DNA of 18,800 nucleotides from a virus. The notes under the pieces were generated by a model. It was not told the origin of the DNA, did no database searches, and was given only the letters and a program-made list of their open reading frames with translations. This document shows positions 324-13,532 of the stretch, piece by piece. Location: the IMG/VR virus record IMGVR_UViG_3300035191_000049. One strand, given 5' to 3'. Made by a program: the position numbers and the translations under genes. The first letter of the stretch is position 1. Each line of letters opens with the position of its first letter.

Positions 324-396
324 TCGGAGTGACTGGACTTGAACCAGCAACCTCCAGCTCCCAAAGCTGGCGCGCTACCACTTGCGCAACACCCCG
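324..396 (-). tRNA. tRNA-Pro (anticodon TGG)
   Basis: Hand-folded cloverleaf on the minus strand. Acceptor CGGGGTG/CACTCCG with one G-U pair. D-arm GCGC-AAGTGGTA-GCGC. Anticodon stem CCAGC/GCTGG with loop TTTGGGA. T-arm GCTGG-TTCAAGT-CCAGT. No CCA is encoded. Confidence 0.75.
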
Positions 397-397
397 A

Positions 398-474
398 TGG
401 TCGGGCTGGTGGGAGTCGAACCCACACTACTCCGCGTCCCGAACGCGGCGGCTTACCATCAAGCCCTCAGCCCG
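398..474 (-). tRNA. tRNA-Pro (anticodon CGG), CCA encoded
   Basis: Acceptor CGGGCTG/CAGCCCG followed by a discriminator and CCA. D-arm GGCT-TGATGGTA-AGCC. Anticodon stem CCGCG/CGCGG with loop TTCGGGA. T-arm GTGGG-TTCGACT-CCCAC. The variable loop has 6 nt. Confidence 0.7.
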
Positions 475-538
475 TGTTTGGGGATGATTATTGAGTGCCG
501 TCCCCGAACACTTTTTCCACAAGCTGCCAACCCATGGG

Positions 539-641
539 TGGACCTGGCGGGAATCGAACCCGCGTCCACGCACAGTCCATTCGTAGGCTCTACGTGCGTA
601 GCCCTGCTTCAATACGACCGGTAGACCAGCAAGGCAGGTCG
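539..641 (-). tRNA. tRNA-like element, atypical (about 103 nt): canonical T-arm and 6/7-bp acceptor pairing but an unresolved, over-long body
   Basis: A perfect T-arm (GCGGG-TTCGATT-CCCGC) sits at 547-563 next to the acceptor 3' strand at 540-546. The only complementary 5' acceptor strand lies at 635-641, with a C-C mismatch at 1-72. The roughly 70 nt in between contain several hairpins (CGTAG/CTACG and CCTGC/GCAGG) but no clean D-arm or anticodon-arm solution. Confidence 0.3.
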
Positions 642-949
642 TACCCGGAAGATGTCCACTCTCTATCTCGTCAGCCCCGAGCGAGCGGAGACTTGAAAGC
701 TGACCAGCCACTAAATGACGTCCCATCCCGAGTCGCGGCACCTCAGGTGGAACGGAAGCTTACGCCGCCCTCGCGAGCGGTGCTTCATGGTAGTTATCGG
801 TGTTGACAACTGATTTTTTGCCTCCCGTTTTGACGGGCAAGGAGACATCTCCGGCACGCTCCTACGTACTTCATGTACCTGTCGAAACCAAATCAGGCCC
901 ATGCGGGCCACCCCTGCGTCCTCCTTGCGAAGGATAGCTGGGAGCCCTA

Positions 950-1036
950 CGGCAGAGGGGAGAATCGAACTCCATCCCTTTTACAGGACCATCCGATTAG
1001 CAGTCGGCGACGGGTCCATACCCGCTTCTCTCTGCC
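950..1036 (-). tRNA. tRNA-Ser (anticodon GCT), type II with long variable arm
   Basis: Acceptor GGCAGAG/CTCTGCC pairs 7/7. T-arm GGAG-TTCGATT-CTCC. Anticodon stem CCGA/TCGG with loop CTGCTAA. Length is 87 nt with an extra arm. The D region (CGGG-TATGGA-CCCG) is not fully resolved. Confidence 0.6.
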
Positions 1037-1037
1037 A

Positions 1038-1127
1038 CGGAAGGAGGAGGACTTGAACCCCACCCGCCTCTTCAGCGAGCGCACTGTTTTCGAAACAGGC
1101 TCGTCAACCCTGGACGATTCCCCTTCC
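1038..1127 (-). tRNA. tRNA-Ser (anticodon CGA), type II
   Basis: Acceptor GGAAGGG/TCCTTCC with one G-U pair. T-arm with loop TTCAAGT. Anticodon stem CTGT/ACAG with loop TTCGAAA. D stem CGTC/GACG. Length is 90 nt. Confidence 0.55.
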
Positions 1128-1132
1128 AACAG

Positions 1133-1217
1133 CGGAAGCCGAGGGACTTGAACCCCACCCCTTTTGAGAGCGCACCGCTTTCCAAGCGGGCATGGCACCC
1201 TGGCCATTTCAGCTTCC
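1133..1217 (-). tRNA. tRNA-Ser (anticodon GGA), type II
   Basis: Acceptor GGAAGCT/GGCTTCC with one G-U pair. The T-arm TTCAAGT motif is identical to the neighbouring Ser gene. Anticodon stem CCGC/GCGG with loop TTGGAAA. Length is 85 nt. Confidence 0.55.
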
Positions 1218-1381
1218 AGGCGCCCCTCCAATGAGCGCTCAGAGGAGGGACTTTCGCCACCGTTACCAGCGACAGGACAGGAACATGCTGCCCAAGGCCC
1301 ACGGCTTGCCGTGGGGGATGAAGCTAGGGGCCGAAATTCGGTCCCCTGCACCCGGTTGCCGAAGCTTCCGGGGGGATAGGG

Positions 1382-1463
1382 CGGAGGGTGTACGAGTCGA
1401 ACGCGCCCCGTCAAGGGTCATCGGTGTTCAAAACCGCGCCGGCACCACTGCCGCTCACCCTCC
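1382..1463 (-). tRNA. tRNA-Ser (anticodon TGA), type II
   Basis: Acceptor GGAGGGT/ACCCTCC pairs 7/7. D-arm CGG-CAGTGGTG-CCG. Anticodon stem CGGT/ACCG with loop TTTGAAC. Variable arm of 15 nt. T-arm GCGCG-TTCGACT-CGTAC. Confidence 0.65.
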
Positions 1464-1466
1464 ATG

Positions 1467-1538
1467 CGGTACCGACGGGAGTCGAACCCGCTTTCTCCTG
1501 GTCGACAGCCAGGTGTCCTACCGTTGGACCTCGGTACC
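1467..1538 (-). tRNA. tRNA-Asp (anticodon GTC)
   Basis: Acceptor GGTACCG/CGGTACC pairs 7/7. D-arm GTCC-AACGGTA-GGAC. Anticodon stem CCTGG/CCAGG with loop CTGTCGA. T-arm with loop TTCGACT. Confidence 0.75.
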
Positions 1539-1963
1539 TAGTGAACATAGCCTTTTCCAACCGGCTCGACCACCGACTGAAAAAGCTTTTCGATCGCGAC
1601 GTCGAGGTTGACGCCGTCTTTGGGACGAGCCATCGCCTTGGGTGAGTCGATTCGGATCGCACAGGTGTAGAGCTTCGCGAGCTGCATCCAGAAGACTGCC
1701 TCCCATGGAGGAACATCCTCGTCCAGATAGGGGACACGATGCCCCGCTGCGTAGGTCCGAATCTGACCCGAGACGATGCTGATGAAGGCGTGGTTTGGAA
1801 CCACTCCGAACGGAATCGACTCTTCCGTCCTGAGGACGCGAATCGCCCAGCGCTCTTCGTCACGGTCAAAGATGACGACACCGACGGGTGCCGCCGCGTT
1901 GTGCTCCGGCCTGTACATCTGACGAATGATGACGTAGCCGAAGTCCAGGTCTTCCAAAGCCAT
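1538..1963 (-). CDS. hypothetical protein (141 aa) embedded in the tRNA array
   Basis: ORF-track ORF 1538..2101, trimmed to the internal Met (MALEDLDFGYVIIRQMYRPEH...) because tRNA-Phe occupies 1975-2049. The composition looks protein-like. I recognised no family. Confidence 0.45.
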   Translation of the reverse strand: MALEDLDFGYVIIRQMYRPEHNAAAPVGVVIFDRDEERWAIRVLRTEESIPFGVVPNHAFISIVSGQIRTYAAGHRVPYLDEDVPPWEAVFWMQLAKLYTCAIRIDSPKAMARPKDGVNLDVAIEKLFQSVVEPVGKGYVH

Positions 1964-1974
1964 GTCATTCCCCC

Positions 1975-2049
1975 TGGTGGGCCAGATCGGAATCGAACCG
2001 ATATCTGCCGCATTTTCAGTGCGGGCTCTTACCAATTGAGTACTGACCC
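1975..2049 (-). tRNA. tRNA-Phe (anticodon GAA), CCA encoded
   Basis: Acceptor GGGTCAG/CTGGCCC with one G-U pair, followed by ACCA. D-arm CTCA-ATTGGTA-AGAG. Anticodon stem CCGCA/TGCGG with loop CTGAAAA, matching the canonical Phe loop. T-arm ATCGG-TTCGATT-CCGAT. Confidence 0.8.
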
Positions 2050-2138
2050 AAAAGAGTGGTGAATCACCTTGCTTCCTTCCGGACCTGGGGCAACTCACCA
2101 CCCCACAAAAAGGGGGTCAGCATGGCTGGCGACCATAC

Positions 2139-2213
2139 TGGCACCGGCAACAGGACTTGAACCTGTATTCACGGCTTCAAAGGCCGTTGTCCTACCGATT
2201 GGACGATACCGGT
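2139..2213 (-). tRNA. tRNA-Gln (anticodon TTG), CCA encoded
   Basis: Acceptor ACCGGTA/TGCCGGT with one U-G pair, followed by GCCA. U8 is present. D-arm GTCC-AATCGGTA-GGAC. Anticodon stem ACGGC/GCCGT with loop CTTTGAA. T-arm ACAGG-TTCAAGT-CCTGT, perfect. Confidence 0.8.
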
Positions 2214-2467
2214 ATTCCACCCCAGCTCACTCTCCCGATCGACGCCGTTTGGACCACCTGCTCCTCCAGACGCAAGATGGCCACCAAGCGCCTGAATTCA
2301 ACGCAGGTCGGGGCGGTACCTTCCCCGAATCTCACACGACTGGTGTGCGTCTTGTGTCGAGCGGCAACTGCTCCGTATCCTCGGTGAGCCGATCGGGCGT
2401 TTCCCAGAGACGACTGCAGTCGTTGATCTCAATCGACCTACTCCAGGTTGCCGAAACGGAGCTGAGG

Positions 2468-2543
2468 TGGCTGGGGTGGAGAGGCTCGAACTCCCGACAA
2501 CCTGGGCCAGAACCAGGTGCTCTTCCAACTGAGCTACACCCCA
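2468..2543 (-). tRNA. tRNA-Gln (anticodon CTG), CCA encoded
   Basis: Acceptor TGGGGTG/CACCCCA pairs 7/7, followed by GCCA. U8 is present. D-arm GCTC-AGTTGGAA-GAGC. Anticodon stem CCTGG/CCAGG with loop TTCTGGC. T-arm with loop TTCGAGC. Confidence 0.8.
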
Positions 2544-2550
2544 AGGGTAG

Positions 2551-2624
2551 CGGGCCAGGAGGGAATTGAACCCCCATCTCCAGGTTAACAGCCTGGCGCT
2601 AAAACCAGTATCAGCTACTGACCC
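2551..2624 (-). tRNA. tRNA-Asn (anticodon GTT)
   Basis: Acceptor GGGTCAG/CTGGCCC, the same acceptor as tRNA-Phe. U8 is present. D stem GCTG/TAGC. Anticodon stem CCAGG/CCTGG with loop CTGTTAA, matching the canonical Asn loop. T-arm with loop TTCAATT. Confidence 0.75.
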
Positions 2625-2629
2625 ACGAT

Positions 2630-2655
2630 CCGGCGCCCCAGCAAGGGGGCGCCGG
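2630..2655. other. perfect 10-bp GC hairpin (CCGGCGCCCC-AGCAAG-GGGGCGCCGG) between tRNA-Asn and tRNA-Lys
   Basis: Read directly from the sequence. No flanking U-run on either strand, so it is not a classical intrinsic terminator. It may be a processing or structural element within the tRNA transcript. Confidence 0.5.
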
Positions 2656-2721
2656 TAATTGATGCCTGATTGTCAAAGATCAACGTGGCCGTCACCACTG
2701 GACCGACGTTGTCCAATTTAG

Positions 2722-2796
2722 CCGGGGCGAGAGGATTCGAACCTCCGACCAAGTGATTAAGAGTCACCCACTCTAGCCAGACTGAGTTACGCCCCG
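2722..2796 (-). tRNA. tRNA-Lys (anticodon CTT)
   Basis: Acceptor CGGGGCG/CGCCCCG pairs 7/7. U8 is present. D-arm ACTC-AGTCTGGCTA-GAGT. Anticodon stem with a G-U closing pair and loop CTCTTAA. T-arm AGAGG-TTCGAAT-CCTCC. Confidence 0.75.
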
Positions 2797-2809
2797 AAAA
2801 CGTTATTTT

Positions 2810-2881
2810 GTGGGTCCACTGAGATTCGAACTCAGACCGCCTGATTAAAAGTCAGGAGCGCTACCCTTACGCTCATGGACC
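2810..2881 (-). tRNA. tRNA-Lys (anticodon TTT)
   Basis: Acceptor GGGTCCA/TGGACCC pairs 7/7. Anticodon stem CCTGA/TCAGG with loop CTTTTAA, matching the canonical Lys loop. T-arm CTGAG-TTCGAAT-CTCAG, perfect. The D region (GCG...CGC) is less clean. Confidence 0.75.
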
Positions 2882-2904
2882 CTGCTTTCTCCTCCAAAAA
2901 CGTC

Positions 2905-2939
2905 AAAAGCCGCCTCGGTTGACCCGGGGCGGCTTTTTT
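2905..2939. terminator. bidirectional rho-independent terminator (AAAA-GCCGCCTCGG-TTGAC-CCGGGGCGGC-TTTTTT)
   Basis: A 10-bp GC-rich stem (one G-U pair) with a 5-nt loop. A T6 run follows it on the plus strand. On the minus strand TTTTGACGTTTTT follows it. It sits between the 50-aa ORF and tRNA-Lys(TTT). Confidence 0.75.
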
Positions 2940-2959: not shown

Positions 2960-3112
2960 CTACCCCGGGGGACCCTCCTGAAGCGCGACGTTGGTATCAA
3001 TGGCAAATGGCGTACAGGAGGGCCGTTCCAAGCATGACGGGTGATTCAACGACCACCCGCTACGCTTGAGCAGCTCCCTTGTTGTCAGATAGCTTTTGCC
3101 GCCTTTTTCCAT
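2960..3112 (-). CDS. small ORF (50 aa, MEKGGKSYLTTRELLKRSGWSLNHPS...), possible HTH-like regulator, or else the body of an sRNA
   Basis: It lies entirely between the predicted promoter (3165-3192) and the terminator (2905-2939). An AGGA motif precedes the ATG but with only 2 nt of spacing. The LTTRELLKRSGWS segment resembles a helix-turn-helix turn. It is below the 60-aa cutoff of the ORF track. Confidence 0.3.
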   Translation of the reverse strand: MEKGGKSYLTTRELLKRSGWSLNHPSCLERPSCTPFAIDTNVALQEGPPG

Positions 3113-3616: not shown

Positions 3617-4309
3617 TCAGAACCCCGTTTCCATTGCCTCTCGACTCTGCTTCCTAAATCTCACAACAAACTGCAATCCGGCTTTATCGATTGGCTGCCT
3701 GGTGTACGCTTTCAGGTATGTCGAGCATACAAATTCAACTGCCAAGCCAAGCTTCCTTGCCAGCGACACGAAAAACCCCGCGGGGAACCTTGCCCCGTTG
3801 AGTTCCCCGTCTCTCCAGGGATGCATTCCACTGGTTGTGTGCTCACCGTTCAACGACTCGTTGTAAGTAGAGAAGTAAACTCCATTTTCAGCCATACGAC
3901 CAAACACAGCGCCCAGGCATGCTTCAACCTGAGAGGGCGTCATATGCGTCATGACCGAGTGAGACCAGGCGAAGTCAAACCGAATCCCCTCGGGCAACAA
4001 AGAAAGATCAAAATCCGTCGACTGAAAAAGAGTAGCTTTCTTATCAACCAGGCCCTGAAGGACGATCTCTTCGCGAGCTGCAGACAGGACGTGTTCGTTG
4101 TGATCAAGGCCAAAATAGTGTCCAGGCTCCAAGTAGTCGATGAAAAAACGTCCAGCCCGCAGTGCCCCACAGCCCACCTCAAGCATGTAGTGGGAAGGAA
4201 CAAGACCATGAGCTTTGGCAAATTCAAATAGAAGCTCTCCATCCTCCCAGGTTTCACAGCCGTGGATTTCTTTTGTACGCCACCACTTATCGCTCGTCGG
4301 CTTAGTCAT
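3617..4309 (-). CDS. class I SAM-dependent methyltransferase
   Basis: Rossmann motif I YMLEVGCGALRAG followed by an acidic residue. A GAGGGG Shine-Dalgarno site lies about 9 nt upstream. This segment has lower GC (about 50%) than the rest of the window. Confidence 0.65.
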   Translation of the reverse strand: MTKPTSDKWWRTKEIHGCETWEDGELLFEFAKAHGLVPSHYMLEVGCGALRAGRFFIDYLEPGHYFGLDHNEHVLSAAREEIVLQGLVDKKATLFQSTDFDLSLLPEGIRFDFAWSHSVMTHMTPSQVEACLGAVFGRMAENGVYFSTYNESLNGEHTTSGMHPWRDGELNGARFPAGFFVSLARKLGLAVEFVCSTYLKAYTRQPIDKAGLQFVVRFRKQSREAMETGF

Positions 4310-4381
4310 TAACTCAAACCCCTCAGCAACCCAACGCGGTTAGTGCCTGCCAAATGACAAGACTTACCAAAATCCCAATAA

Positions 4382-4618
4382 TCACCGCGAGGATAGACCC
4401 CAATCGTCCCTCACCCCCTCCACCTCTGCCCCGGTACATACCACCCTCGCCACAAAGACCATCACCATCCAGGTAAAAATGATCACTGCTAGCCACAGTA
4501 AAAATCCCAGAGTAGCGCTCCGGACCAACTCCAAAGCACCCTCCTTCTTTCTCTGTTGCATGATGCTCGTGTTTAGCACGTTCATCCTGCAGAAGTCATG
4601 TTCGCTGCGTTTAGCCAA
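4382..4618 (-). CDS. small membrane protein (one TM helix, LGFLLWLAVIIFTWMVMVFVA)
   Basis: ORF-track ORF with a hydrophobic core. The true start may be the internal Met at 4585. Confidence 0.35.
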   Translation of the reverse strand: MAKRSEHDFCRMNVLNTSIMQQRKKEGALELVRSATLGFLLWLAVIIFTWMVMVFVARVVCTGAEVEGVRDDWGLSSR

Positions 4619-5312
4619 CTCTCAGCTTTGCCACACCCCAAGCGTGGTCGTAAATGTGCATCCCCTTGCAACTCCAGATGATTTCACCGGCCGTGACGGT
4701 AACGTCATCAGTACTGATGCACTCGGCCATATACTCCTGCATGAGCCTCACAGCGGCGATATTCGCCGGGAAGCCGTTCCAGAGGTCATTCGACCTGATG
4801 TAGACGAAGAAGTGCAACTCGGGCTCTTCTCCCTCTCGGAGCCCTGATGGGGAGAAAATTCTGGTGTCAATTTGTCGCAGACAGGGCGGGTCATCCAGCG
4901 TTATGTCTTCAGGACGGGCGACAGCAATGCACTCCTGGTTGGAGCCGAAACCGTTTCTGCGGTAGCGGTTGATGATGGCCTCCATCTGGGGAGCCACTCG
5001 CTCGCCATAGGTGTACAGCTCATTTTCCTTGAGAGGCTGGTCTGTCATTAAATAGGGAAGGTACTCCTCTATATATTCCATGGTCGTTGGAGGAGGCACG
5101 TGTGAGAGGTGCTGAGGCATCTCAGGAACGAGGGGGCGCACGCCTGGGTGGGTGACCCGTATCTCCACCCAGTCAAGCTCCCAGCGCTTCTGGCCCTCAT
5201 AGGAACCATGATCAACGACCCACTGTCGCCCATGGGTAAGAACTGCATCGACGGTTTGAAACCAGGCATCGGGCAGGTCCCTGGCTTTGATGTGAATTGG
5301 CTTCAAGGACAT
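4611..5312 (-). CDS. thymidylate synthase-fold enzyme (ThyA/dUMP hydroxymethylase family), divergent
   Basis: Aligns by eye to ThyA core motifs: YTYGERV (compare pVYGkQWR), DDPPCL (catalytic Cys of LAPCH), FVYIRSNDLWNGFPANIAA (compare QLYQRSCDVFLGLPFNIAS, Asn retained), and IIWSCKGMHIYDHAW (compare fVWTGGDTHLYSNH). The ATG at 5312 overlaps the upstream stop as TGATG. Confidence 0.75.
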   Translation of the reverse strand: MSLKPIHIKARDLPDAWFQTVDAVLTHGRQWVVDHGSYEGQKRWELDWVEIRVTHPGVRPLVPEMPQHLSHVPPPTTMEYIEEYLPYLMTDQPLKENELYTYGERVAPQMEAIINRYRRNGFGSNQECIAVARPEDITLDDPPCLRQIDTRIFSPSGLREGEEPELHFFVYIRSNDLWNGFPANIAAVRLMQEYMAECISTDDVTVTAGEIIWSCKGMHIYDHAWGVAKLRVG

Positions 5313-5533
5313 CAACTTTTCTCCTGGGGTCCTACCCCAGCGAGTGGCATCACGTCGATGTACAACCCACGCCAGCCACCTTCAAGCATTTGTCGAACAA
5401 AATAAACGTCCTGAGGATTACCTATCCATACAAAAACCTTCTTGCCGCCGTAAGCCACTCGGACGTCCTTTATCCCATGCACCTTGGTGAGGTGCCCATA
5501 CACAGCTTCAACGATCCCGTCGAAGCGCCTCAT
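5312..5533 (-). CDS. hypothetical protein (73 aa)
   Basis: ORF-track ORF. It is coupled by ATGA and TGATG overlaps to both neighbouring genes. Confidence 0.45.
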   Translation of the reverse strand: MRRFDGIVEAVYGHLTKVHGIKDVRVAYGGKKVFVWIGNPQDVYFVRQMLEGGWRGLYIDVMPLAGVGPQEKS

Positions 5534-6171
5534 GCTTCAGAAACAATGTTTCCTTCGCTGAGCTTCATCACCAGATCGTACTCCGACAGGTCGTCAGGAG
5601 ACGCAATCGCCACTCCATCGCCAACTCGGACGATCGGTATCCACGAAGCACAGCAACCACAGACGATCCGGAGCTGGTCACGGTCGTCACCCTCGAAGTT
5701 GTCGTCCTTTAGACGGGCGAACGTAATGTTTCCAGAGAATCTCGGGTTGTCGTCGTTTCCACCCATTGCGTCGCCACAGACAGGACATGGGCTGTCGAGA
5801 ATGCCGTTTTTAATGAGGTCCGCGATCATCTCCCAGGCCCGACGATCCACGACTAGGTTTGTCGCGAAGAGTGTGTGAGAGTGGAGCCTGTGAGCCTCCT
5901 CGATGGTCATTACATCTGTGGAGAGCGGGGCAAGCTTTGCGAGCTGTTTATGCAACCAACAATGCTGCCCCAGCGCAAGGTCCAACTCACCAACCAAGCG
6001 ATAGGACATGCTTCTTTCACTGAGCTTTTGAAAACAATCAGCGCAGAAACCGATAGGCCTCTCATGATCCGCATAGACGACAGTGACTCTCTCCCAAGGA
6101 GGCTCTTTTTCGCAATCTCGCTGCAAACCACACCCAAGGCAACGCTCCAATATTCGGACAACTTTCGGCAT
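5530..6171 (-). CDS. Cys-rich (Zn-ribbon-like) hypothetical protein
   Basis: Multiple CxxC pairs (CLGCG, CADC, CPVCGD, CGCC). A strong AGGAGG Shine-Dalgarno site precedes it. Confidence 0.55.
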   Translation of the reverse strand: MPKVVRILERCLGCGLQRDCEKEPPWERVTVVYADHERPIGFCADCFQKLSERSMSYRLVGELDLALGQHCWLHKQLAKLAPLSTDVMTIEEAHRLHSHTLFATNLVVDRRAWEMIADLIKNGILDSPCPVCGDAMGGNDDNPRFSGNITFARLKDDNFEGDDRDQLRIVCGCCASWIPIVRVGDGVAIASPDDLSEYDLVMKLSEGNIVSEA

Positions 6172-6681
6172 CTAATCCTCCTGCTCGATCACCTGAGGAG
6201 CAGGAGGAAGAAGAGCCGTCGCGCTGTTGTTCAGGATCTCCGGGAGTCGAGGACCGATGGCCTCGGCGACGGTACGTCCATCGCTACCGACGAGCCATGG
6301 CAGGAAGAGCTGCTCGGGCGTGATGATGCCGTTCTCGATGGCCTCGAAGGCGCCCTTGAGAAAAATGCTCAGCACGCGGTGCTCTCGCCATCCTCGGGAC
6401 GCCTTGAGACGCTTGAACTTGTCCGGGAGCAAGGTCCCGTGCCGCCTGTGCTTGGCCTCCTCCTTGAGCTTTTCGTCATCAGGTAGGGCGACGTTCATGC
6501 GCGCGTGGTAGCTGACACCTTCATGCTGCCAGACGAACTCCAGCATAACCCTGTAGTTCTCGAAATTTTCCGACCACCGAATCCCGGTTACGCCCCACAA
6601 ACGGAGCAGGTCGGTGATTTCCTCCCTGGACTCACCTGGCGGGACTACCGTGTTCTCGGCATACTTCCTCTTCTTGGGCAT
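6172..6681 (-). CDS. hypothetical protein (169 aa), basic N-terminus
   Basis: ORF-track ORF with a GGAG Shine-Dalgarno site 6 nt upstream. It overlaps the 3' end of the radical SAM gene by about 50 nt. Confidence 0.5.
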   Translation of the reverse strand: MPKKRKYAENTVVPPGESREEITDLLRLWGVTGIRWSENFENYRVMLEFVWQHEGVSYHARMNVALPDDEKLKEEAKHRRHGTLLPDKFKRLKASRGWREHRVLSIFLKGAFEAIENGIITPEQLFLPWLVGSDGRTVAEAIGPRLPEILNNSATALLPPAPQVIEQED

Positions 6682-7420
6682 CTTTCTCTCCGATTGCTTT
6701 GAGATGAAGGGGGCTCAGGTTCGAGTTGAGCCCACAACGGTTGCACTTCATGGTTTTGAGATTGCGCTCAATGGTCAGGACGTCATCGTGGACAGTCCCG
6801 ATTGAGTGGCAGGTGTCGGCCTCGCCAGTAACGATGGTGCCGTCGACGTTGACAGCCGGGCTGCAATGTTTCCCCATCTGCTCGATCGCCCTGATGCCAC
6901 CAGCAAGGCCACCAGTGCTCCTCGTCGCGCTTCTCAGATTGAAGCACGTAGGACTGATACGGGTGGGCTTGATACGATTCTCTTTCGTCCTGCGACAGGG
7001 AAAAATAACGCGGAGGTTCGACTCGAAGCTGACTCCAGGGATACGTCGAAACTTTTCCCTGGCGAGGATCTTCGGATAGTAGCGCGGATCGTTCGTCACC
7101 TGGATGGGCAGCTCCAACTCGCGAGCGAGCTTCACTTTCTCCGGATCATCGATCCATGAGCCGTTCGTTGTGATGAGCGTGGCCTGGTGATAGACGTGAA
7201 ACTTGTCGAGTCGCCTCAAATGGCCTGCCATCTCTTCGAGCTTCGGATGCTCGAAGGGCTCTCCTCCGGTGAGTAGAATGACCTTGGCGGCGACACTCTG
7301 AGCAAAATCGACAGCGGCCTTAAACGTCTCCATAGTCATGTGCTCGCCATCTGGACCTGAGGAATCGACCATGCAGTGCTTGCACCCCATGGTGCAGCAA
7401 TTCGTGACACGGATCAGCAT
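6632..7420 (-). CDS. radical SAM enzyme, QueE/NrdG/PflA-like (paralog 1)
   Basis: N-terminal CTMGCKHC (Cx3Cx2C) and LTGGEPFEHP (GGEP SAM-binding motif). C-terminal extra Cys pairs, ending in CNRCGL. A GAGGGGG Shine-Dalgarno site is present. Parallel in sequence to the gene at 10111-10929. Confidence 0.75.
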   Translation of the reverse strand: MLIRVTNCCTMGCKHCMVDSSGPDGEHMTMETFKAAVDFAQSVAAKVILLTGGEPFEHPKLEEMAGHLRRLDKFHVYHQATLITTNGSWIDDPEKVKLARELELPIQVTNDPRYYPKILAREKFRRIPGVSFESNLRVIFPCRRTKENRIKPTRISPTCFNLRSATRSTGGLAGGIRAIEQMGKHCSPAVNVDGTIVTGEADTCHSIGTVHDDVLTIERNLKTMKCNRCGLNSNLSPLHLKAIGEKDAQEEEVCREHGSPAR

Positions 7421-8715
7421 TGCTCGACCCCCTCAGTAGGCTCCTCTTCTTCAGGAGGTAGTAGCGCTTTCCAGCGGTCTTCCTTGAATCGATGATCGGT
7501 GGCGTAAGGGATGTAACGCACCAGGCCTGCATCGATAAGCCTTTGAAGAATGCCGTTCATGTACTTTACGGCCTCGTTGTGATCGTCGGGCAGTGAGCCT
7601 ATCCGGTTGAGGATCGAGTAGATGTCGTAGTCGCGCCACATGCGCTTTCCGCCCAAATCCCTGAGCATGAGGCCGTGCAACTCTTTCATGAGGGGGGTAA
7701 GCGGCTGCTGTTCGAAGGTGGCGTCCCTGTGAATAAAGGTTGGGTACTGACAGTTGTTGATTTCGACGCAGACCGGGCACTCGTCTGCTGCCTCCCGGAT
7801 ATCCTCATCCGTCATCGATATCATCCTGTGACTGTCACGTGCCGCGAACAGGAGCTGGTTGAGCGTCCAGGGAAGGAGCTTTCCTTCTTCGTCTTTGTTC
7901 GTGAGGAGCAGCTCGCCGATCGTCTTGGCGAGAGCCTCCTTTTTGCCTGGCTCCTTCTCCTCGGGACCCCCCACCTCGATGTCCATTTCTTCCAATCCGT
8001 TGTCTGCCACGCAGTAGACGTGGTCAGAGGTGTTTCCGAGACGGCTCTTGACGACTACTTCAACAGACATAAGAGCCTCAAGCTGCTGCTCGACGAGTTC
8101 GATATCGATCTCTGGGTGTACCTCTTTGAGCCCGTGCTCGATCTCCTCCGCGGACCAAACCGCGCTCATGCCGTCCTTCTTGGTCCCTGCCTTGACCATG
8201 AGCTTGACGATGTTGACGGCAATCGGAGGCCACGTAGCCTCCGGAATATTGACGGACAGCTCTGGCTCGTTTTCGCCGTCATTAGACGAGTGGCAGCAAT
8301 TCTCATCCTCACCGATCGCGGCCACATCATTATCCGGCTCGGGCTTCTGTTCAGGTTTCTGGAACGGCCGCATGTGCATGTCGGGCTGCTCGAACTTCTT
8401 GTCTTCGTTAACGATTGCGTCGCGAAGATCGCAGGTCAGGCGAAATGCTTCTTCAGCGACCCATGTCGCCTCCTCCCCCATTTCTTCGTTCTTTGTCATC
8501 TGGACGTTCAGCGACCAGCCCGAGATGAGCTTGGCGACCATCATGAGGATGCGAGAATTCTCTTCGACGCGAGCCACCTCTTTCGCAGCGTTGACGATGT
8601 CCGAGACACTGCCCTCGGTAGAACGAAGATACTTCTTTCGCACCCTTCCAAGCTCCTCAGCGGCCTCCTTCATCTCTGCGATCAAGTTTCTGATTTTGGG
8701 TTCGTCGGACATCAT
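7414..8715 (-). CDS. hypothetical acidic protein (433 aa)
   Basis: ORF-track ORF with balanced composition. The antisense plus-strand ORF 7675..8901 is Leu/Arg-rich and was judged spurious. A GGGGTGA Shine-Dalgarno site is present. Confidence 0.55.
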   Translation of the reverse strand: MMSDEPKIRNLIAEMKEAAEELGRVRKKYLRSTEGSVSDIVNAAKEVARVEENSRILMMVAKLISGWSLNVQMTKNEEMGEEATWVAEEAFRLTCDLRDAIVNEDKKFEQPDMHMRPFQKPEQKPEPDNDVAAIGEDENCCHSSNDGENEPELSVNIPEATWPPIAVNIVKLMVKAGTKKDGMSAVWSAEEIEHGLKEVHPEIDIELVEQQLEALMSVEVVVKSRLGNTSDHVYCVADNGLEEMDIEVGGPEEKEPGKKEALAKTIGELLLTNKDEEGKLLPWTLNQLLFAARDSHRMISMTDEDIREAADECPVCVEINNCQYPTFIHRDATFEQQPLTPLMKELHGLMLRDLGGKRMWRDYDIYSILNRIGSLPDDHNEAVKYMNGILQRLIDAGLVRYIPYATDHRFKEDRWKALLPPEEEEPTEGVEQC

Positions 8716-9137
8716 TCACCCCGCTTGAGAGAAAAACCTTTCAGGACACCCACGTCATCGCCAGCGGCCTCACAGGTGACCTCTGTGACCTGGATCGAGC
8801 CGAGCAGCCATCGTCCTGGCATCCGAATCATGTGCCTCAGCGCGTCCAGCTTCTTGTTGAGAAATTCCTTCAGTGATCCGCCGACATCCTCCTGGGAGTA
8901 GCGAGCCACCTCTTCTTTATCTTGCCACCAGCCGGGGTCAGGCTCGTGGCCAGGGAGCTGCCAAACGTTCTCGTCTGGACGGAAGGCCAGACTGAAGAAA
9001 GCGTCGGGGTACATTTCCAACAGCTTGTGCGTTGGAGGTCCCCACTCTTTGTCGTCCTCAGGATGTTCTTCTTTGTAGACCTCAAGAAGAGGACGAATCT
9101 TTCCGCCTCGCCGAATACGCAAAAAGCCTGGCATCAT
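8712..9137 (-). CDS. hypothetical protein (141 aa)
   Basis: ORF 8712..9266 trimmed to the internal MMPGF start (9137). A GAGGA Shine-Dalgarno site lies 5 nt upstream. This avoids a 94-nt overlap with the upstream gene. Confidence 0.5.
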   Translation of the reverse strand: MMPGFLRIRRGGKIRPLLEVYKEEHPEDDKEWGPPTHKLLEMYPDAFFSLAFRPDENVWQLPGHEPDPGWWQDKEEVARYSQEDVGGSLKEFLNKKLDALRHMIRMPGRWLLGSIQVTEVTCEAAGDDVGVLKGFSLKRGE

Positions 9138-9171
9138 GTATTCCTCGGGAATCACAGCAACGACGAGAGCG

Positions 9172-9717
9172 TCACCCACTTGCGCCTCCCTGTGCCCACC
9201 GTTCGAAGTCGACCTCTCGCATGTGACCGCTCTTCTTAAAGATGGGAAAAAGACCCATGGGTCCATCGGGCGGAAACATCTCGGCGTCCTTGCCCATGAC
9301 GGGCTCGAAGTTGCAGCCCTGAAGGATCAGGGCCACAAACTCAGAACAGGAGACCTTGTTGTGATTGATGATGGGGTTGAACCACTCGACTCCCGTCACC
9401 TTGTAGAGCGCAAGGAGGATGCCGTTCAGGATGACGGCCTTGAAATCGTATTTCTTGTTAACGTAGTTACGCGCCTTTCGCATCCCCTCCTCGATATCCA
9501 GTCCGACGACCTCGAAGCACATCCAGTCGTCGTAGTTTTTTTTGAGAAGCTCGACTCGCTGGGGAATGACGCCGTCGGAAATAGCATGGGTGACCCACTG
9601 GCCTCCCCACACCGGATCCGTGTAACCCACCCAGGCGTGGTTCCAGTTACCTCCCGTCGCCTTGCGAATGAGCCAACCGAGAAAGTTGTTCGACCTGCTG
9701 AATCCAACGACAATCAT
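9172..9717 (-). CDS. permuted papain-fold enzyme (LRAT-like / NlpC-P60 superfamily), thiol hydrolase or acyltransferase
   Basis: A His-containing segment (NWNHAWVGY) lies N-terminal to a Cys box (SCSEFV, compare LRAT NCEHF). That is the permuted order. The start at 9717 forms an ATGA overlap with the SLOG gene's stop. Confidence 0.5.
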   Translation of the reverse strand: MIVVGFSRSNNFLGWLIRKATGGNWNHAWVGYTDPVWGGQWVTHAISDGVIPQRVELLKKNYDDWMCFEVVGLDIEEGMRKARNYVNKKYDFKAVILNGILLALYKVTGVEWFNPIINHNKVSCSEFVALILQGCNFEPVMGKDAEMFPPDGPMGLFPIFKKSGHMREVDFERWAQGGASG

Positions 9718-10190
9718 CTCAGCCTCTTGAAGATTTCCATGCACCGGAACTTTGCTGTCTCCTGAGCACCTGGAAATCCACTCTCACGGGGGCCGGCGAC
9801 GTTGATGACCTCAAAGTTGGTTAGCAGCGAGGCAAGGTGGTCGTAGCCATCGCTCTCGTTGGGAAACATGTGCAGCTCGTTGATGATGTCGAACCAGGGC
9901 TTTTCCAGTTTGCGGCACAAGCGCACCGTGAGAGCTGTTCCCGTCGAATCAGGGATGCTGGGACAGAGGATGAGAGTCGCGTCCGAGTCCCGGACGTTCC
10001 ACTCCGTGCGCTGAGGATAGTTCGACGTCGGCGCCTCCTGGAGCCTGCGGTATTTCTGGGGGATCTTGCCGTCCTCAGCTCGACGTCCCAGGGGACACCA
10101 GCCCCCTATCTCAATGCCCAGCTTCAGCGCCGCATCGAGACCACCTCGATCGACCCCTGTCTGACCGCCTGATATGACTTTTTTCAACAT
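9714..10190 (-). CDS. SLOG-superfamily protein ('putative molybdenum-carrier'/YpsA-like)
   Basis: The N-terminus ISGGQTGVDRGGLDAALKLGIEIGGWCPLGRRAEDG matches the signature start of the MoCo-carrier-like SLOG family. Downstream TEWNVRDSDATLIL follows. Confidence 0.6.
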   Translation of the reverse strand: MLKKVISGGQTGVDRGGLDAALKLGIEIGGWCPLGRRAEDGKIPQKYRRLQEAPTSNYPQRTEWNVRDSDATLILCPSIPDSTGTALTVRLCRKLEKPWFDIINELHMFPNESDGYDHLASLLTNFEVINVAGPRESGFPGAQETAKFRCMEIFKRLR

Positions 10191-10929
10191 CCTTCAACCC
10201 GCACTTTCCGCAGGGGAGTATTGTTCGTATTCTCTCCATCGCCGCCCTTGACGCCGATTTCCAGTCGGCGCGCAGCTCATCGATCGTCGTCACCTTCATG
10301 CAGCAATCAAGCGGCCCCATTCGGACCTCTCCCCCGGGATGCACGTGAATGCTGCACGTTCCGTCCAACGCTTCCCACATGCGAACGAACGACCGGAAGT
10401 TTGCATCGCCTGCTCCGCGCTTCAATAGTCTGTTCGCGTGCACGCAGTAGCGATTCTTTTCTCTGATTTTCGTTCCAGGAGGAGGTTTCCAGCCGCGCCT
10501 TTTCGCCTTCTCTCCGACGTATATTGAACTTAGATAGCTGATAACCTTCACGTTCTTCAACGCTCGCAGCTCATCAACGAAGTCGAGCTGCGGATAGAAC
10601 CGAAAGTCAGCGGTCACCTGGAATGCGACAGGCGCCAAGGACTTGATCTCTGCGAGGCGCCCTCTGAGCAGGGCGCCACTCGTCCCGACCCTCACGATAA
10701 AACCATGCTCCAGCGCAGCGTCACGAAGGGTCTTCACGACTTCCCAAAAAAGCGGATGTTCGAGCGGCTCGCCACCAGCTATGCCCAGGTCGTTCGAGCC
10801 GATCTTTTTGAAGACGCGAAGCGTTTCTTCGAGCGTCTCCTTGCTCATGTGCTCGGCACCGGGACCGGTCTTCGACACCAGGCAGTGATCACAATCGAGG
10901 GAGCACCGATATGTGAGCATGATGACCAT
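10111..10929 (-). CDS. radical SAM enzyme, QueE/NrdG/PflA-like (paralog 2)
   Basis: CSLDCDHC (Cx3Cx2C) and IAGGEPLEHP. C-terminal Cys pairs, ending in CGKCGL. Same architecture as the gene at 6632-7420. Confidence 0.75.
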   Translation of the reverse strand: MVIMLTYRCSLDCDHCLVSKTGPGAEHMSKETLEETLRVFKKIGSNDLGIAGGEPLEHPLFWEVVKTLRDAALEHGFIVRVGTSGALLRGRLAEIKSLAPVAFQVTADFRFYPQLDFVDELRALKNVKVISYLSSIYVGEKAKRRGWKPPPGTKIREKNRYCVHANRLLKRGAGDANFRSFVRMWEALDGTCSIHVHPGGEVRMGPLDCCMKVTTIDELRADWKSASRAAMERIRTILPCGKCGLKDVEKSHIRRSDRGRSRWSRCGAEAGH

Positions 10930-10935
10930 AAGCCA

Positions 10936-11268
10936 TCAACGACCCTTCTTAGTCTTTGTATTCGACTTGCCACCAGGCCATCGGTCGGCCTTCCCTCGTC
11001 CGACGTGAAAGCTCTCGCCATCCTTCGCGGCGTGCTTCACAAACTGAGCGAGTTCTGGGTCTTTTTCGAGTAACCTCATGTACTGACGCGCCGCTTCATC
11101 AATAGCCGCGTCAGCGCCATTCAATCCCGTGTAGCCATTCTGTAATGCGGCCACCCCTTCATGCGGCGAGCACCCCGGTGCTTTAATCCGGACATCGTAC
11201 TCGTCGACCAATCCCGCGTGCCCCCCCGTCACCGTCAGACGAACCTCCCCACTGAACCTCTTCGGCAT
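10936..11268 (-). CDS. hypothetical protein (110 aa)
   Basis: ORF-track ORF. No family recognised. The GLVDEYD segment is only vaguely dUTPase-like. Confidence 0.45.
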   Translation of the reverse strand: MPKRFSGEVRLTVTGGHAGLVDEYDVRIKAPGCSPHEGVAALQNGYTGLNGADAAIDEAARQYMRLLEKDPELAQFVKHAAKDGESFHVGRGKADRWPGGKSNTKTKKGR

Positions 11269-11681
11269 TACTTTTCCCTCCGAACCCTTCCTTGCTTGAT
11301 CGCTGACCGAAAAAGCCCTTCTACATGCTTTCCCAGATCGATCTGGCTCACCCCCAGCACAGTGTTTGTCATGGCCGCGGTGGTTATCTCATCGATGAAT
11401 TCAGGGTCGATGTCCCAGCCCTCATCGTTGACGCACAGCTCGTCCCCCTCGAAGTAGAACTCCGGGATGTCATCGGCAGTGTGGTCAAATTGAAGTTCAA
11501 GGCCGCTGTCGGGACCGGTCCCGTTTGCGTTGACCACCAAGGGGTCAATCGCTTGCGGCATGTGCTTCTGGATCTCTTCCATCTGCTCGATTATTTCCAA
11601 AGCGCGCCCGACAGCCCCCTGTCGTAGCGACGCCTTCACCTTCTCCAGCTCTGCCCAGAAATCGACGTCTTCCTGTTTCAT
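11268..11681 (-). CDS. hypothetical acidic protein
   Basis: ORF 11268..11705 trimmed to the Met at 11681, which overlaps the upstream stop by 1 nt. Confidence 0.45.
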   Translation of the reverse strand: MKQEDVDFWAELEKVKASLRQGAVGRALEIIEQMEEIQKHMPQAIDPLVVNANGTGPDSGLELQFDHTADDIPEFYFEGDELCVNDEGWDIDPEFIDEITTAAMTNTVLGVSQIDLGKHVEGLFRSAIKQGRVRREK

Positions 11682-12100
11682 CAATCCAACCCTGCCACCT
11701 GACACGACAGCTCGTCGAGCTGCTTCTGCATGTCATCGACGCGATCCTCCAGCTCCGTCACCCTCGCCGCCAAGCTTTTGGCGAAGCGCTCGGTGTGCTT
11801 CACGCAGAGAGCGGTAAACTTCCCGCCGTCAACGATTATGCTGTTCTCATCGACGAATCCTGGCTGCACCCCCTCGACTTCCTGATTGAACACAGACGTC
11901 GCGAAGTTCCAGCAGCCGTCGACATCGCAGGTACACGGGATTGCCTCTACGCCGCGCATGTTCTTGAGCTTGTGACGATCGCGATACTGCTTGCGCGCCT
12001 CAGCTTTCTCGTAACGTCCGGCTGGGAAAAATAGATTGGACATCCCCTTCTTCCACACTCGCCAGTAGATGTGCGGCTGTCCGTTTTTATCAACACCCAT
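11681..12100 (-). CDS. hypothetical protein with C-terminal coiled-coil
   Basis: ORF 11681..12256 trimmed to the internal Met (MGVDKNGQPHIYW...). The N-terminal extension is Ser/Thr-rich, low-complexity, and overlaps the upstream gene. Confidence 0.45.
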   Translation of the reverse strand: MGVDKNGQPHIYWRVWKKGMSNLFFPAGRYEKAEARKQYRDRHKLKNMRGVEAIPCTCDVDGCWNFATSVFNQEVEGVQPGFVDENSIIVDGGKFTALCVKHTERFAKSLAARVTELEDRVDDMQKQLDELSCQVAGLD

Positions 12101-12488
12101 TTCTCTTCTCCCGGTCCAGGTAGTAACCCATGGGGTGACCATGAACCTCCTTAAAACGCTCTTTCGAGATTTCGTGACGCCGCATGAGGCACTCGTCGCA
12201 GATGGGCTCGTACTTGTAGAGCATGTCCCCGTCGTCAGCCCAGTCGATGTAACCATGCCACAGCACCCACGAGCGCTCTGCGGCCGTCGCGCGACAGAGG
12301 GCGCACTGCATACCGACCATACCCTTCAGGCCATGTAGCTTTCTGACGTCGCCACAGCCCCTACAGGTCATGAGTCTGGGGTTGACCCACTTCTTCTCGT
12401 GAATGCACTTCTCGCAGCCCTCGACCATGCACTCGAAGCAACCCCCGACCTCGACGTTCTCAGCGCCACATGCTCTACACTTCGGCAT
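12090..12488 (-). CDS. Cys-rich Zn-finger protein (132 aa)
   Basis: Five CxxC pairs (CRACG, CFEC, CEKC, CRGCG, CDEC). Confidence 0.5.
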   Translation of the reverse strand: MPKCRACGAENVEVGGCFECMVEGCEKCIHEKKWVNPRLMTCRGCGDVRKLHGLKGMVGMQCALCRATAAERSWVLWHGYIDWADDGDMLYKYEPICDECLMRRHEISKERFKEVHGHPMGYYLDREKRNGC

Positions 12489-13532
12489 CTATAGACGCCT
12501 CATCTCGAACTGGAGCGAACGGATCTTTTGGAGCAGCCCATCAACGCCCTGGAATATTTTCCTAACGCGATCCCTTGTCGTCTTTGGCCAGTTGTCCTTG
12601 TCATCGATACTGCCGAGCACTTTATTGGCCTCAAATTCCAGCTCGTCAACGGCTTGGACGGCATCAAACACATCGAACATTTTTTTCTTCTCGGGCACGA
12701 CGGACATGACGACCACATCTTTGGGAATGCTGTAGATCGGGCCACGAAGGATGTAGGCAACCTTCATCCTCAGGACGTTCCCAGTGTATCCCTGGTCAGG
12801 AGGACCAAAGTAGGTCTCGTCAGCCGTTACACCGGCACCTGTCGTCCCTGGGTTCCACTCCTTCAGAACGAGAATGTCGCCCTTCTCGAAGTCACGATCG
12901 TTCTTGCGAACGTCGAAGGTCTTCTCACCCGACTTCATTGCGCGGAATTCGGCTGGCCACGTCTTCAACTCGTGCTCGACGGGCTCACGCTTTTCATGTC
13001 GGCGCCTGAACATCTCCAGCGTCTTGTCAGGAGCACCTACTAAAACATTTCGATCGCCCACTGGATAGACACGTTCTGGATCCGCGCCCATCAGCTCCAC
13101 CGTCTCCTCGACGGAGATTGAGTCGGGCACTGGATCGCTAAACGGAGGCGACGCAGGATAGTCACCGCCGAGCCGCTCCATGAAGCCTACATCCAGCGGG
13201 GCGTCATCACCTTCTTCTTCATGCTTCAAGAGAGCGTCGATCTCTTCCTTCTGTCGCTGCTTCTCGGCCTCGTAGTCGCGGTCCCACTGGGCCAGTTGCT
13301 CTTTCGTGGCAGGCATGTGCTCGCCAGGCTTTCGACAAGCCTCTGGGTCATCGACAAGATGCGGCTCTTGACACCAACCGGAATTCTTTTCTCGCTCGAC
13401 TAGCCCCTTAAAAACAGGGCATTCAGACGTTTCCTTGGTCACTTCTATCGATTCATATTTGCAGCCGTGGACGGGGCAGCAGTGTGTAATGTGGACCCCC
13501 CAGCCCTCCGGTAGTTCTTCTTCGGACATCAT
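12489..13532 (-). CDS. ASCH/DUF3850 (PUA-like) domain protein with Cys/His-rich N-terminus
   Basis: The C-terminal KTWPAEFRAMKSGEKTFDVRKNDRDFEKGDILVLKEW...GYTGNVLRMKVAYI matches the DUF3850/ASCH signature. The N-terminus HCCPVHGC...ECPVFKG is a metal-binding cluster. Confidence 0.6.
   Translation of the reverse strand: MMSEEELPEGWGVHITHCCPVHGCKYESIEVTKETSECPVFKGLVEREKNSGWCQEPHLVDDPEACRKPGEHMPATKEQLAQWDRDYEAEKQRQKEEIDALLKHEEEGDDAPLDVGFMERLGGDYPASPPFSDPVPDSISVEETVELMGADPERVYPVGDRNVLVGAPDKTLEMFRRRHEKREPVEHELKTWPAEFRAMKSGEKTFDVRKNDRDFEKGDILVLKEWNPGTTGAGVTADETYFGPPDQGYTGNVLRMKVAYILRGPIYSIPKDVVVMSVVPEKKKMFDVFDAVQAVDELEFEANKVLGSIDDKDNWPKTTRDRVRKIFQGVDGLLQKIRSLQFEMRRL

Follow-up and report, generated by a model that had tools for sequence, protein, structure and literature searches.

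Introduction

Arrays of transfer RNA (tRNA) genes are a well-documented, ordinary feature of large phages, and phage tRNA islands have been documented both with and without a transfer-messenger RNA (tmRNA). The tRNA region of phage T4 comprises 8 tRNAs, two small stable RNAs and the homing endonuclease SegB. Roseobacter phage DSS3P8 (146 kb) and Mesorhizobium phage Cp1R7A-A1 (131 kb) carry multi-kb tRNA arrays interrupted by small open reading frames (ORFs), a tmRNA gene (ssrA) is annotated in GenBank records of Stenotrophomonas phages, and the jumbo Sinorhizobium phage AP-J-162 encodes 66 tRNAs and a tmRNA (PMC11242549). A screen for selenocysteine tRNA (tRNA-Sec) found a class of '(8/4) tRNA-Ser' in the tRNA clusters of alpha-proteobacterial phages (Mukai 2017, PMC5389517). 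Here we analyze a minus-strand RNA gene array in an 18,800-nucleotide (nt) stretch of viral DNA (IMG/VR record IMGVR_UViG_3300035191_000049; the whole stretch is referred to below as the window). In all likelihood, this array is a translation-RNA island of a large phage that probably infects an alpha-proteobacterium, with 13 apparently functional tRNAs, a tmRNA, a small protein and a hairpin that resembles the RNA of the signal recognition particle (SRP).

As a tRNA/tmRNA island, the locus is an instance of an already-known phenomenon. The T4 region resembles it in having extra small stable RNAs co-transcribed with tRNAs and a homing-type endonuclease gene inside the cluster, but its tRNAs are far fewer, and it is not known to encode a tmRNA or an RNA similar to that of the SRP. 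AP-J-162 and the Stenotrophomonas phages share with the window a large tRNA complement and a phage-borne tmRNA. The Ser tRNAs of DSS3P8 and Cp1R7A-A1 are built like those of the window: the acceptor stem has 8 bp and the T stem 4 bp, the discriminator is G73, and both the variable arm and the D stem are long; however, outside the tRNAs neither phage has detectable DNA or protein relatedness to the window, and no tmRNA or SRP-like hairpin was detected in the 10-kb array stretches that we scanned (L136 for DSS3P8 and L137 for Cp1R7A-A1).

Results

Gene content of the array

The minus strand between positions 322 and 2882 holds 13 tRNA genes, a one-piece tmRNA, a small ORF and the SRP-like hairpin. 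These features and the two that adjoin them are as follows (L001 and L006 are contigs described below).

2905..2934, minus strand: terminator-like GC-rich hairpin followed by TTTT, read from the sequence; 100% conserved in L006
2810..2882, minus strand: tRNA-Lys(TTT), A73, CCA not encoded; ARAGORN, Rfam RF00005 63.4 bits
2721..2796, minus strand: tRNA-Lys(CTT), C1-G72, G73, CCA not encoded; ARAGORN, Rfam 62.8 bits
2550..2624, minus strand: tRNA-Asn(GTT), G73, acceptor stem equal to that of Phe; ARAGORN, Rfam 62.2 bits
2468..2543, minus strand: tRNA-Gln(CTG), U1-A72, G73, CCA encoded; ARAGORN, Rfam 61.1 bits
2139..2213, minus strand: tRNA-Gln(TTG), G73, CCA encoded; ARAGORN, Rfam 67.3 bits
2053..2104, minus strand: SRP-tip-like 52-nt hairpin, apex at 2070-2087, adjoining the 5' end of tRNA-Phe
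1975..2049, minus strand: tRNA-Phe(GAA), A73, CCA encoded; ARAGORN, Rfam 62.3 bits
1538..1963, minus strand: 141-aa ORF inside the array, an open frame with an AGGGGG ribosome-binding site
1466..1538, minus strand: tRNA-Asp(GTC), G73, CCA not encoded; ARAGORN, Rfam 64.6 bits
1382..1463, minus strand: tRNA-Ser(TGA), 8/4-type, G73, long variable arm; ARAGORN default, tRNA-Sec model 30.7 bits
1133..1217, minus strand: tRNA-Ser(GGA), 8/4-type, G73; ARAGORN only at -ps90, tRNA-Sec model 30.4 bits
1038..1127, minus strand: tRNA-Ser(CGA), 8/4-type, G73, paralogue of Ser(GGA); ARAGORN at -ps90, tRNA-Sec model 37.2 bits
950..1036, minus strand: tRNA-Ser(GCT), G73, 6-bp D stem with tetraloop; ARAGORN at -ps90, tRNA-Sec model 41.3 bits
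537..900, minus strand: one-piece tmRNA; ARAGORN, Rfam RF00023 147.5 bits
398..474, minus strand: tRNA-Pro(CGG), C1-G72, A73, CCA encoded; ARAGORN, Rfam 40.5 bits
322..396, minus strand: tRNA-Pro(TGG), C1-G72, A73, CCA not encoded; ARAGORN, Rfam 61.7 bits
1..268, minus strand: 5' portion of an HNH_3 endonuclease ORF of 246 aa in total; Pfam HNH_3 E = 6.5e-12, gene map of L001

With default settings, ARAGORN identified the tmRNA and 10 tRNAs (Pro(TGG), Pro(CGG), Ser(TGA), Asp(GTC), Phe(GAA), Gln(TTG), Gln(CTG), Asn(GTT), Lys(CTT) and Lys(TTT)), all on the minus strand within 322-2882, and Rfam at the gathering score returned the tmRNA (RF00023) and 9 tRNAs (RF00005, 40.5-67.3 bits against a threshold of 29). 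At 90% of the default score (-ps90), ARAGORN added Ser(GCT), Ser(CGA) and Ser(GGA) at 950-1217, with no false positives; these three genes lie outside what RF00005 and ARAGORN at its default accept as a canonical tRNA. An earlier reading of the array, made by hand-folding the sequence (the original prediction), had listed the same 13 anticodons, and the three additional Ser genes that it folded are those that ARAGORN reports at the lower score. Most of its folds are thus accepted by the automated finders. Its count of at least 14 tRNAs included an atypical element that is most likely the tmRNA (537-900), leaving 13; apart from the nature of this element, it had missed the non-canonical fold of the Ser tRNAs and the continuation of the array past the window.

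The 3' CCA is encoded in exactly four genes, as had been noted (Gln(CTG), Gln(TTG), Phe and Pro(CGG)), and the acceptor stems of Phe and Asn are indeed identical over all 7 bp (GGGTCAG/CTGGCCC). The claim that two Ser genes share an identical T-arm is right only in part: Ser(CGA) and Ser(GGA) have in common 16 identical nt, GGTGGGGTTCAAGTCC, spanning the 5' T strand, the loop and two further bases, but on the 3' side the T strand reads CCTC in the former and CCCT in the latter. The internal duplication that had been suggested from such shared pieces is supported for this pair, which is 73% identical and ranks at the top of all 78 pairs, but not for the other adjacent isoacceptors. We considered the Lys, Gln and Pro neighbors as recent duplicates and rejected them, given that their identities of 62-67% are like those of unrelated tRNAs (median 57%).

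The identity rules for bacterial tRNAs, which involve the discriminator base and acceptor stem features, are established. Under these rules, the discriminators fit the anticodons: both Pro tRNAs have C1-G72 and A73, the Gln tRNAs have a weak 1-72 pair and G73, Asp and Asn have G73, and Phe and Lys(TTT) have A73.

The tmRNA is full length, with 147.5 bits against a threshold of 47 and a match to model positions 1-374 of RF00023. Its acceptor stem (GGGCCUG/CAGGUCC) contains G3.U70 and is followed by A73, a T arm is present, and the CCA is not encoded. The resume codon is GUC, and the predicted tag, (A)VNTDNYHEAPLARAA, extends over 15 codons before a TAA stop and is absent from ARAGORN's tag list. 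Comparison with known phage tmRNAs in GenBank shows likeness confined to 30-36 nt at the tRNA-like 3' end. There is no SmpB gene within the window, outside of which no search for SmpB was made.

Serine tRNAs with an 8/4 fold

Judging by predicted folding, the four Ser tRNAs each conform to an 8/4 cloverleaf like that of tRNA-Sec, in which an acceptor stem of 8 bp and a T stem of 4 bp form a 12-bp acceptor branch. The gain of the 8/4 over the 7/5 fold in RNAfold was 3.9 kcal/mol for Ser(GGA), 4.8 for Ser(CGA), 1.6 for Ser(GCT) and 3.4 for Ser(TGA), and the unconstrained minimum-energy fold of Ser(CGA) is itself the 8/4 cloverleaf. Under 7/5, the T stem contains a U.C mismatch at its base in three of the four genes, and the connector between the acceptor and D stems measures 3-5 nt in all of them, whereas under 8/4 three of the four gain a G8-C pair and a normal 2-nt connector. 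The D stems measure 6 bp in Ser(GCT) and 5 bp in Ser(TGA), both closed by tetraloops, and 5 bp in Ser(GGA) and Ser(CGA), whose D loops have 6-7 nt. Among the Rfam families, tRNA-Sec scores best for each of the four genes (30-41 bits, under the gathering score of 47). The identity set of seryl-tRNA synthetase (SerRS) is represented by G73 in all four and by variable regions of 14-21 nt, which form a stem in three. Together, the four genes cover every Ser codon, with one tRNA per Ser codon box. The tRNA-His in the continuation of the array has a 7/5 and not an 8/4 fold, unlike in the phage class of Mukai 2017.

We aligned eight Ser tRNAs from the window, DSS3P8 and Cp1R7A-A1, leaving out the window Ser(GCT) because its 5' strand is one base longer. 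The eighth acceptor pair (8-65) forms in all eight aligned tRNAs, including one double change from G-C to U-A, whereas the competing 7/5 pair forms in two of the eight. The 8/4 fold accounts for the failure of ARAGORN at its default to report three of the Ser genes. For Ser(GCT), the ARAGORN drawing, with three acceptor mismatches, was rejected as being off register by three bases; the true stem is GGCAGAG/CTCTGCC.

The 8/4 Ser set belongs to a rare class that is already published. In BLAST searches of GenBank phages, the best matches of the Ser genes were found in Roseobacter phage DSS3P8, Ruegeria phage vB_RpoS-V10 and Mesorhizobium phage Cp1R7A-A1, in each case at unannotated positions within tRNA arrays. 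Five 8/4 Ser genes are unannotated in GenBank, two in DSS3P8 (L136 4973-5056 and 2833-2919) and three in Cp1R7A-A1 (L137 4989-5077, 5165-5250 and 5506-5597). The Ser(GGA) of DSS3P8 scores 47.5 bits with the tRNA-Sec model and so reaches its gathering score, which makes a mis-call as tRNA-Sec possible.

A hairpin resembling the tip of SRP RNA

The hairpin between Gln(TTG) and Phe (2053-2104, minus strand) scores 28.8 bits with the SRP RNA model RF00169, below the gathering score of 40. Its core, CAGGUCCGGAAGGAAGCA (2070-2087), matches E. coli ffs (4.5S RNA) from C46 to A63 at 18 of 18 nt. This region is the tip of domain IV, with its symmetric loop and GGAA tetraloop, and folding places the core exactly at the apex of the hairpin (fold z-score -3.6). 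A degenerate SRP-tip motif has a single match in the window and none in 200 shuffled versions of it. UUU separates the hairpin from G1 of tRNA-Phe, and the hairpin foot has U at -1 and G at +1, the same as at the RNase P site at the stem foot of pre-4.5S RNA.

Compared to 4.5S RNA, which measures ~100-114 nt, the 52-nt hairpin lacks the asymmetric loop, the long helix 5 and the distal end, and ~38 of the 97 RF00169 positions are deleted. The stem is continuous, or the place of the asymmetric loop is taken by a run of wobble pairs or a small (3x3) internal loop. In the homologous hairpin of L006, the tetraloop is GGGA instead of GGAA, which is still GNRA, two G.U pairs have turned into A-U and G-C, and the helix register is kept because one base is deleted on each strand. 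Two pairs beneath the symmetric loop, at the position of the asymmetric loop in genuine SRP RNAs, both sequences have a weakly paired patch. Given the score under the gathering threshold and the missing remainder of 4.5S RNA, we treat the hairpin as an SRP-tip look-alike and not as a member of the family.

Among 50,697 GenBank phage records, the 18-mer is present in one, which is an E. coli phage entry of 9 kb; it also occurs in seven IMG/VR contigs. Six of these contigs were scanned with Rfam and contain full-length SRP RNAs above threshold, and the seventh (L007) has an ffs gene of ~100 nt next to a tRNA-Ser, so that the matches are probably host flanks or attachment (att) sites and not mini-hairpins. 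The bacterial genomic matches of the 18-mer that were checked with Rfam are full-length ffs genes, and none of the 121 bacterial matches listed has the same two following bases as the phage copy. No truncated equivalent was found in GenBank phages or IMG/VR, and a search of the JGI metagenome collection with the hairpin pattern gave no match. The SRP-like hairpin is the sole element of the island for which no truncated counterpart was found in the phage collections searched.

Extent of the island and embedded ORFs

In L001, which contains the reverse complement of the window, the array goes on beyond the window start in the order HNH_3 ORF, Tyr, His, a methyltransferase ORF, Arg(CCT), Trp, an irregular Asp(GTC), Glu, Ile(GAT), an ORF, Ile(TAT), Val(GAC) and Val(CAC), and a further tRNA starts at the contig end. 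The RNA island therefore extends over at least 6 kb and looks like a near-complete decoding set.

The TAG stop of the 141-aa ORF overlaps the first base of tRNA-Asp. This ORF has no Pfam or PHROG match and a single homologue among 5.8 billion proteins, which is 86% identical and differs from it by 19 synonymous and 19 nonsynonymous codons; neither the ORF in IMG/VR nor its alignment in the JGI metagenome collection gave a match, and its AlphaFold model is unusable (pLDDT 45).

Several side observations concern the island and its borders. Directly 5' of the ATG (268) of the HNH_3 ORF, the 20 nt at 262-281 on the minus strand, TAACGGTCCTAAGGTAGCGA, are identical to E. coli 23S rRNA at ~1911-1930, a region of I-CeuI-type intron and homing sites, and weaker 23S similarity runs into the ORF; this sequence may point to an rRNA intron as the source of the HNH_3 endonuclease gene. 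In the irregular Asp(GTC) (L001 13667-13742), the D stem has 7 bp, the D loop 3 nt and the connector 1 nt; its best Rfam model is tRNA-Sec (30.7 bits). Between Tyr and His (L001 12663-12766), we found a sub-threshold match (24.7 bits) to YrlA, a bacterial Y RNA, and the gene map of a 61.6-kb contig places a 528-aa protein with a vWA_Ro60 domain ~5 kb beyond it, so the phage may encode a Ro-like protein together with a Y-like RNA. Three long spacers on the minus strand fold somewhat better than shuffled sequences (2214-2467, z = -2.2; 1218-1378, z = -2.5; 2625-2720, z = -4.1) and match no Rfam family; the first of these is ~88% conserved in L006. Upstream of the array, a 50-aa ORF without a Pfam match (2960-3112, minus strand) is followed by the GC-rich hairpin at 2905-2934, and a promoter-like TTGACA-16-TATGCT lies at 3194-3167.

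Flanking genes, relatives and probable source

Nearly all genes in the window are on the same strand as the array. A run from 3617 to 14164 (minus strand) includes an S-adenosylmethionine (SAM) methyltransferase, a thymidylate-synthase-like protein, two radical SAM proteins, a cpYpsA/SLOG protein, a phosphoribosyltransferase and a DUF3850 protein; further along are DUF5131 (Gp37/Gp68, 14428-15576), a thymidylate kinase (17665-18372) and a DNA methylase fragment (18338-18736). The nucleotide-chemistry genes of this run may form, with the latter three, a DNA or nucleotide modification module. On the 61.6-kb contig, ~10 kb upstream of the window end, a 216-aa protein has a weak Pfam match to RNA_ligase and is accompanied by a cREC_REC protein; an RNA ligase at this place would fit tRNA repair.

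An identical 141-aa ORF is present on 11 contigs, the longest of which measures 182,770 bp. In six further assemblies from six samples (L001-L005 and L008), identity to the window is 99.99-100%; the 61.6-kb contig, known from its gene map, comes from a seventh sample. L006 is a relative with 82-90% identity and the same gene order. In this contig, Asn, both Gln tRNAs and Phe are 99-100% conserved and the spacers ~88%, whereas both Lys genes are replaced (L006 3478-3713 vs. window 2721-2882, ~70% alike) and a third gene, Lys(CTT), is added. Replacement of the Lys genes next to nearly identical flanks and neighboring tRNAs suggests that single tRNA genes turn over like cassettes. Covariation in the non-Ser parts of the island could be read from this one relative, at ~90% identity.

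No close relative was found in IMG/VR or among GenBank phages, where the matches were to 36 nt of the tmRNA 3' end and generic tRNA similarity; plasmids gave no match, and no homologue of a 433-aa neighboring protein was found. The source appears to be a large, poorly sampled, uncultivated phage, and its host is probably an alpha-proteobacterium. Three features of the sequence point to such a host: the closest Ser tRNAs are those of Ruegeria and Mesorhizobium phages, the best DUF5131 matches are in alpha-proteobacterial phages, and the tRNA-His has A73 and G1.U72 and lacks G-1, in accordance with the rule quoted by Mukai et al. (PMC5389517). As a side observation on one of these phages, Cp1R7A-A1 carries a GOLLD RNA with an embedded tRNA inside its tRNA array (L137 1585-2047, 193.5 bits vs. 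a gathering score of 150), where its record annotates only a tRNA-Leu.

Discussion

From the genes, folds, identity elements and conservation described above, we infer the expression, processing, charging and selective benefit of the island as follows. The island genes would be co-transcribed as long precursors, which host RNase P and 3' nucleases would trim to mature RNAs. RNase P processes pre-tRNA, pre-tmRNA and pre-4.5S RNA (PMC10731613), and because all three kinds of RNA are its substrates, the RNAs of the island would share one maturation enzyme. The host CCA-adding enzyme would finish the ten RNAs without an encoded CCA (nine tRNAs and the tmRNA), and host synthetases would charge the mature RNAs, with SerRS accepting the 8/4 fold. 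The main benefit would be a phage-owned, near-complete decoding set combined with ribosome rescue, which would keep phage translation going when host tRNAs are depleted or cleaved.

Anticodon nucleases classically target Lys, Asn, Gln, Asp, Tyr, His, Glu and Arg tRNAs. The alternatives to a replacement set with ribosome rescue concern both what the tRNAs are for and what carries them. The original prediction had taken the array as compensating codon usage, that is, as supplying tRNAs for codons common in the phage but rare in its host. As stated, this is not supported, because the set reads every codon of six amino acids, rare ones included. The 23 window genes use codons fairly evenly (GC content at third positions, GC3, of 0.67), and the window set decodes all codons of Lys, Gln, Asn, Asp, Phe and Ser whatever their usage; CAA, with 19% of Gln codons, is read by a dedicated tRNA, and no GGG anticodon is present in the window set despite CCC and CCT together making up 59% of Pro codons. 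Even usage together with full coverage of six amino acids favors a replacement set plus rescue over narrow codon compensation, which we consider unlikely, although AGG and ATA account for 21% of Arg and 12% of Ile codons and the matching Arg(CCT) and Ile(TAT) are present in the continuation of the array. A specific counter-defense, with phage tRNAs resisting or replacing those cut by host anticodon nucleases, is a hypothesis already put forward for phage tRNAs (PMC10264068) and seems to us possible, if doubtful, here. The presence of Lys, Asn, Gln and Asp and, further on, of Tyr, His, Glu and Arg, the RNA-ligase-like gene (a weak Pfam match) upstream on the long contig, and the unusual type of all four Ser isoacceptors, whose 8/4 fold might itself be an escape from a host nuclease, are in line with it; Phe, Pro and Ser, however, are not typical nuclease targets. 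Counter-defense is compatible with the data and overlaps with the replacement set instead of excluding it. As to the carrier, location of the array in a bacterial chromosome, a plasmid or another mobile element, all of which can likewise carry tRNA arrays, appears improbable. The searches of IMG/VR gave no match to the sequence, and no capsid, portal, terminase or tail gene is seen in the window or the gene maps. Nevertheless, a large phage, as originally proposed, is the most likely source, given that the flanking genes match phage families in PHROG and Pfam (Gp37/Gp68 DUF5131, thymidylate kinase, thymidylate-synthase-like, radical SAM and HNH endonuclease), the ORFs are small, dense, on one strand and mostly of no known family, a homing-type HNH endonuclease lies inside the array, plasmid matches are absent, and the phages with the closest Ser tRNA homologues have genomes of 131-147 kb.

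The elements of the island that standard tools pass over invite the suspicion of decay. Ser(GCT), Ser(CGA) and Ser(GGA) could be decaying pseudogenes: they are under the ARAGORN default and the Rfam gathering scores, a 27-43 mismatch tops the anticodon stem, and the acceptor stem of Ser(GCT) has an A.C. We think this very unlikely, because one consistent alternative fold, which homologues in two other phages share and which includes a compensatory change, explains the low scores, and the 27-43 mismatch is itself conserved in seven of the eight family members. Moreover, G73, the paired long variable arm, the 7-nt anticodon loop and the T loop are all kept, and the result is exactly one tRNA per Ser codon box; in E. 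coli, the 8/4 and 9/3 allo-tRNAs that were tested insert Ser efficiently, and SerRS is stated to accept such folds (PMC5389517). For the hairpin, decay is the stronger contender. We see close to an even chance that it is a relic of a captured host ffs gene which does not bind Ffh and at most serves as a processing or termination hairpin. The score under the Rfam threshold and the absence of the asymmetric loop and of the whole distal half of 4.5S RNA are as expected of a relic, the CUCUUUU that follows is terminator-like, and the two sequences compared show no double compensatory change. What a relic leaves unaccounted for is that the intact 18 nt are exactly the protein- and receptor-contacting tip, that they sit exactly at the apex of a re-formed perfect hairpin, and that in L006 the change from GGAA to GGGA preserves GNRA while one deletion per strand keeps the register; an unconstrained copy would be expected to diverge by ~10-12%, like the adjacent spacers. 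These points leave room for a more tentative proposal, to which we assign a clearly lower probability, namely that the 52-nt hairpin is a functional, phage-made miniature SRP RNA consisting only of the tip that contacts Ffh and FtsY and predicted to bind Ffh. It would be freed from the tRNA precursor by RNase P cuts at the hairpin foot and at the adjacent tRNA-Phe. With the distal end that triggers GTP hydrolysis missing, such a mini-SRP could supplement host co-translational membrane targeting or, more provocatively, jam it during infection.

Alpha-proteobacteria normally carry a two-piece tmRNA. The one-piece tmRNA of the island makes either the host assignment or a host origin of this gene uncertain, and it is one of several observations that weigh against a translation-RNA island of an alpha-proteobacterial phage. 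The exact SRP-tip variant (a 24-mer) is commonest, among the matches listed, in ffs genes of Bacteroidota, which is a misfit with the alpha-proteobacterial hints. Pro(CGG) and three Ser genes receive low scores from standard tools; under 8/4, Ser(GCT) contains an A8.C mismatch and its connector is 3 nt long (9/3 being the alternative); and Lys(CTT) is an identity exception, with G73 where A73 is usual. As to transcription, no promoter was found directly upstream of the array, and the terminator-like hairpin at 2905-2934, which the terminator scan passed over because its loop exceeds 8 nt, lies ~20 nt upstream of the first tRNA. The lack of virion genes noted above counts on the same side.

The translation-RNA island of a large phage remains the reading that we prefer, and it has consequences for annotation and for phage biology. 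Standard annotation silently drops tRNAs that look as if they work, a fate that to some degree affects all four Ser genes here. The window adds a second, independent lineage with an 8/4 tRNA for every Ser codon box, which supports this fold as a functional alternative. We found no published report linking phage takeover to membrane-protein targeting in the full-text literature searched. If the hairpin is indeed a miniature SRP RNA, it would represent the first case of a virus mimicking this RNA, would add to phage translation-RNA islands a third RNase P-processed RNA beyond tRNA and tmRNA, and would tie phage takeover of the host to the targeting of membrane proteins.

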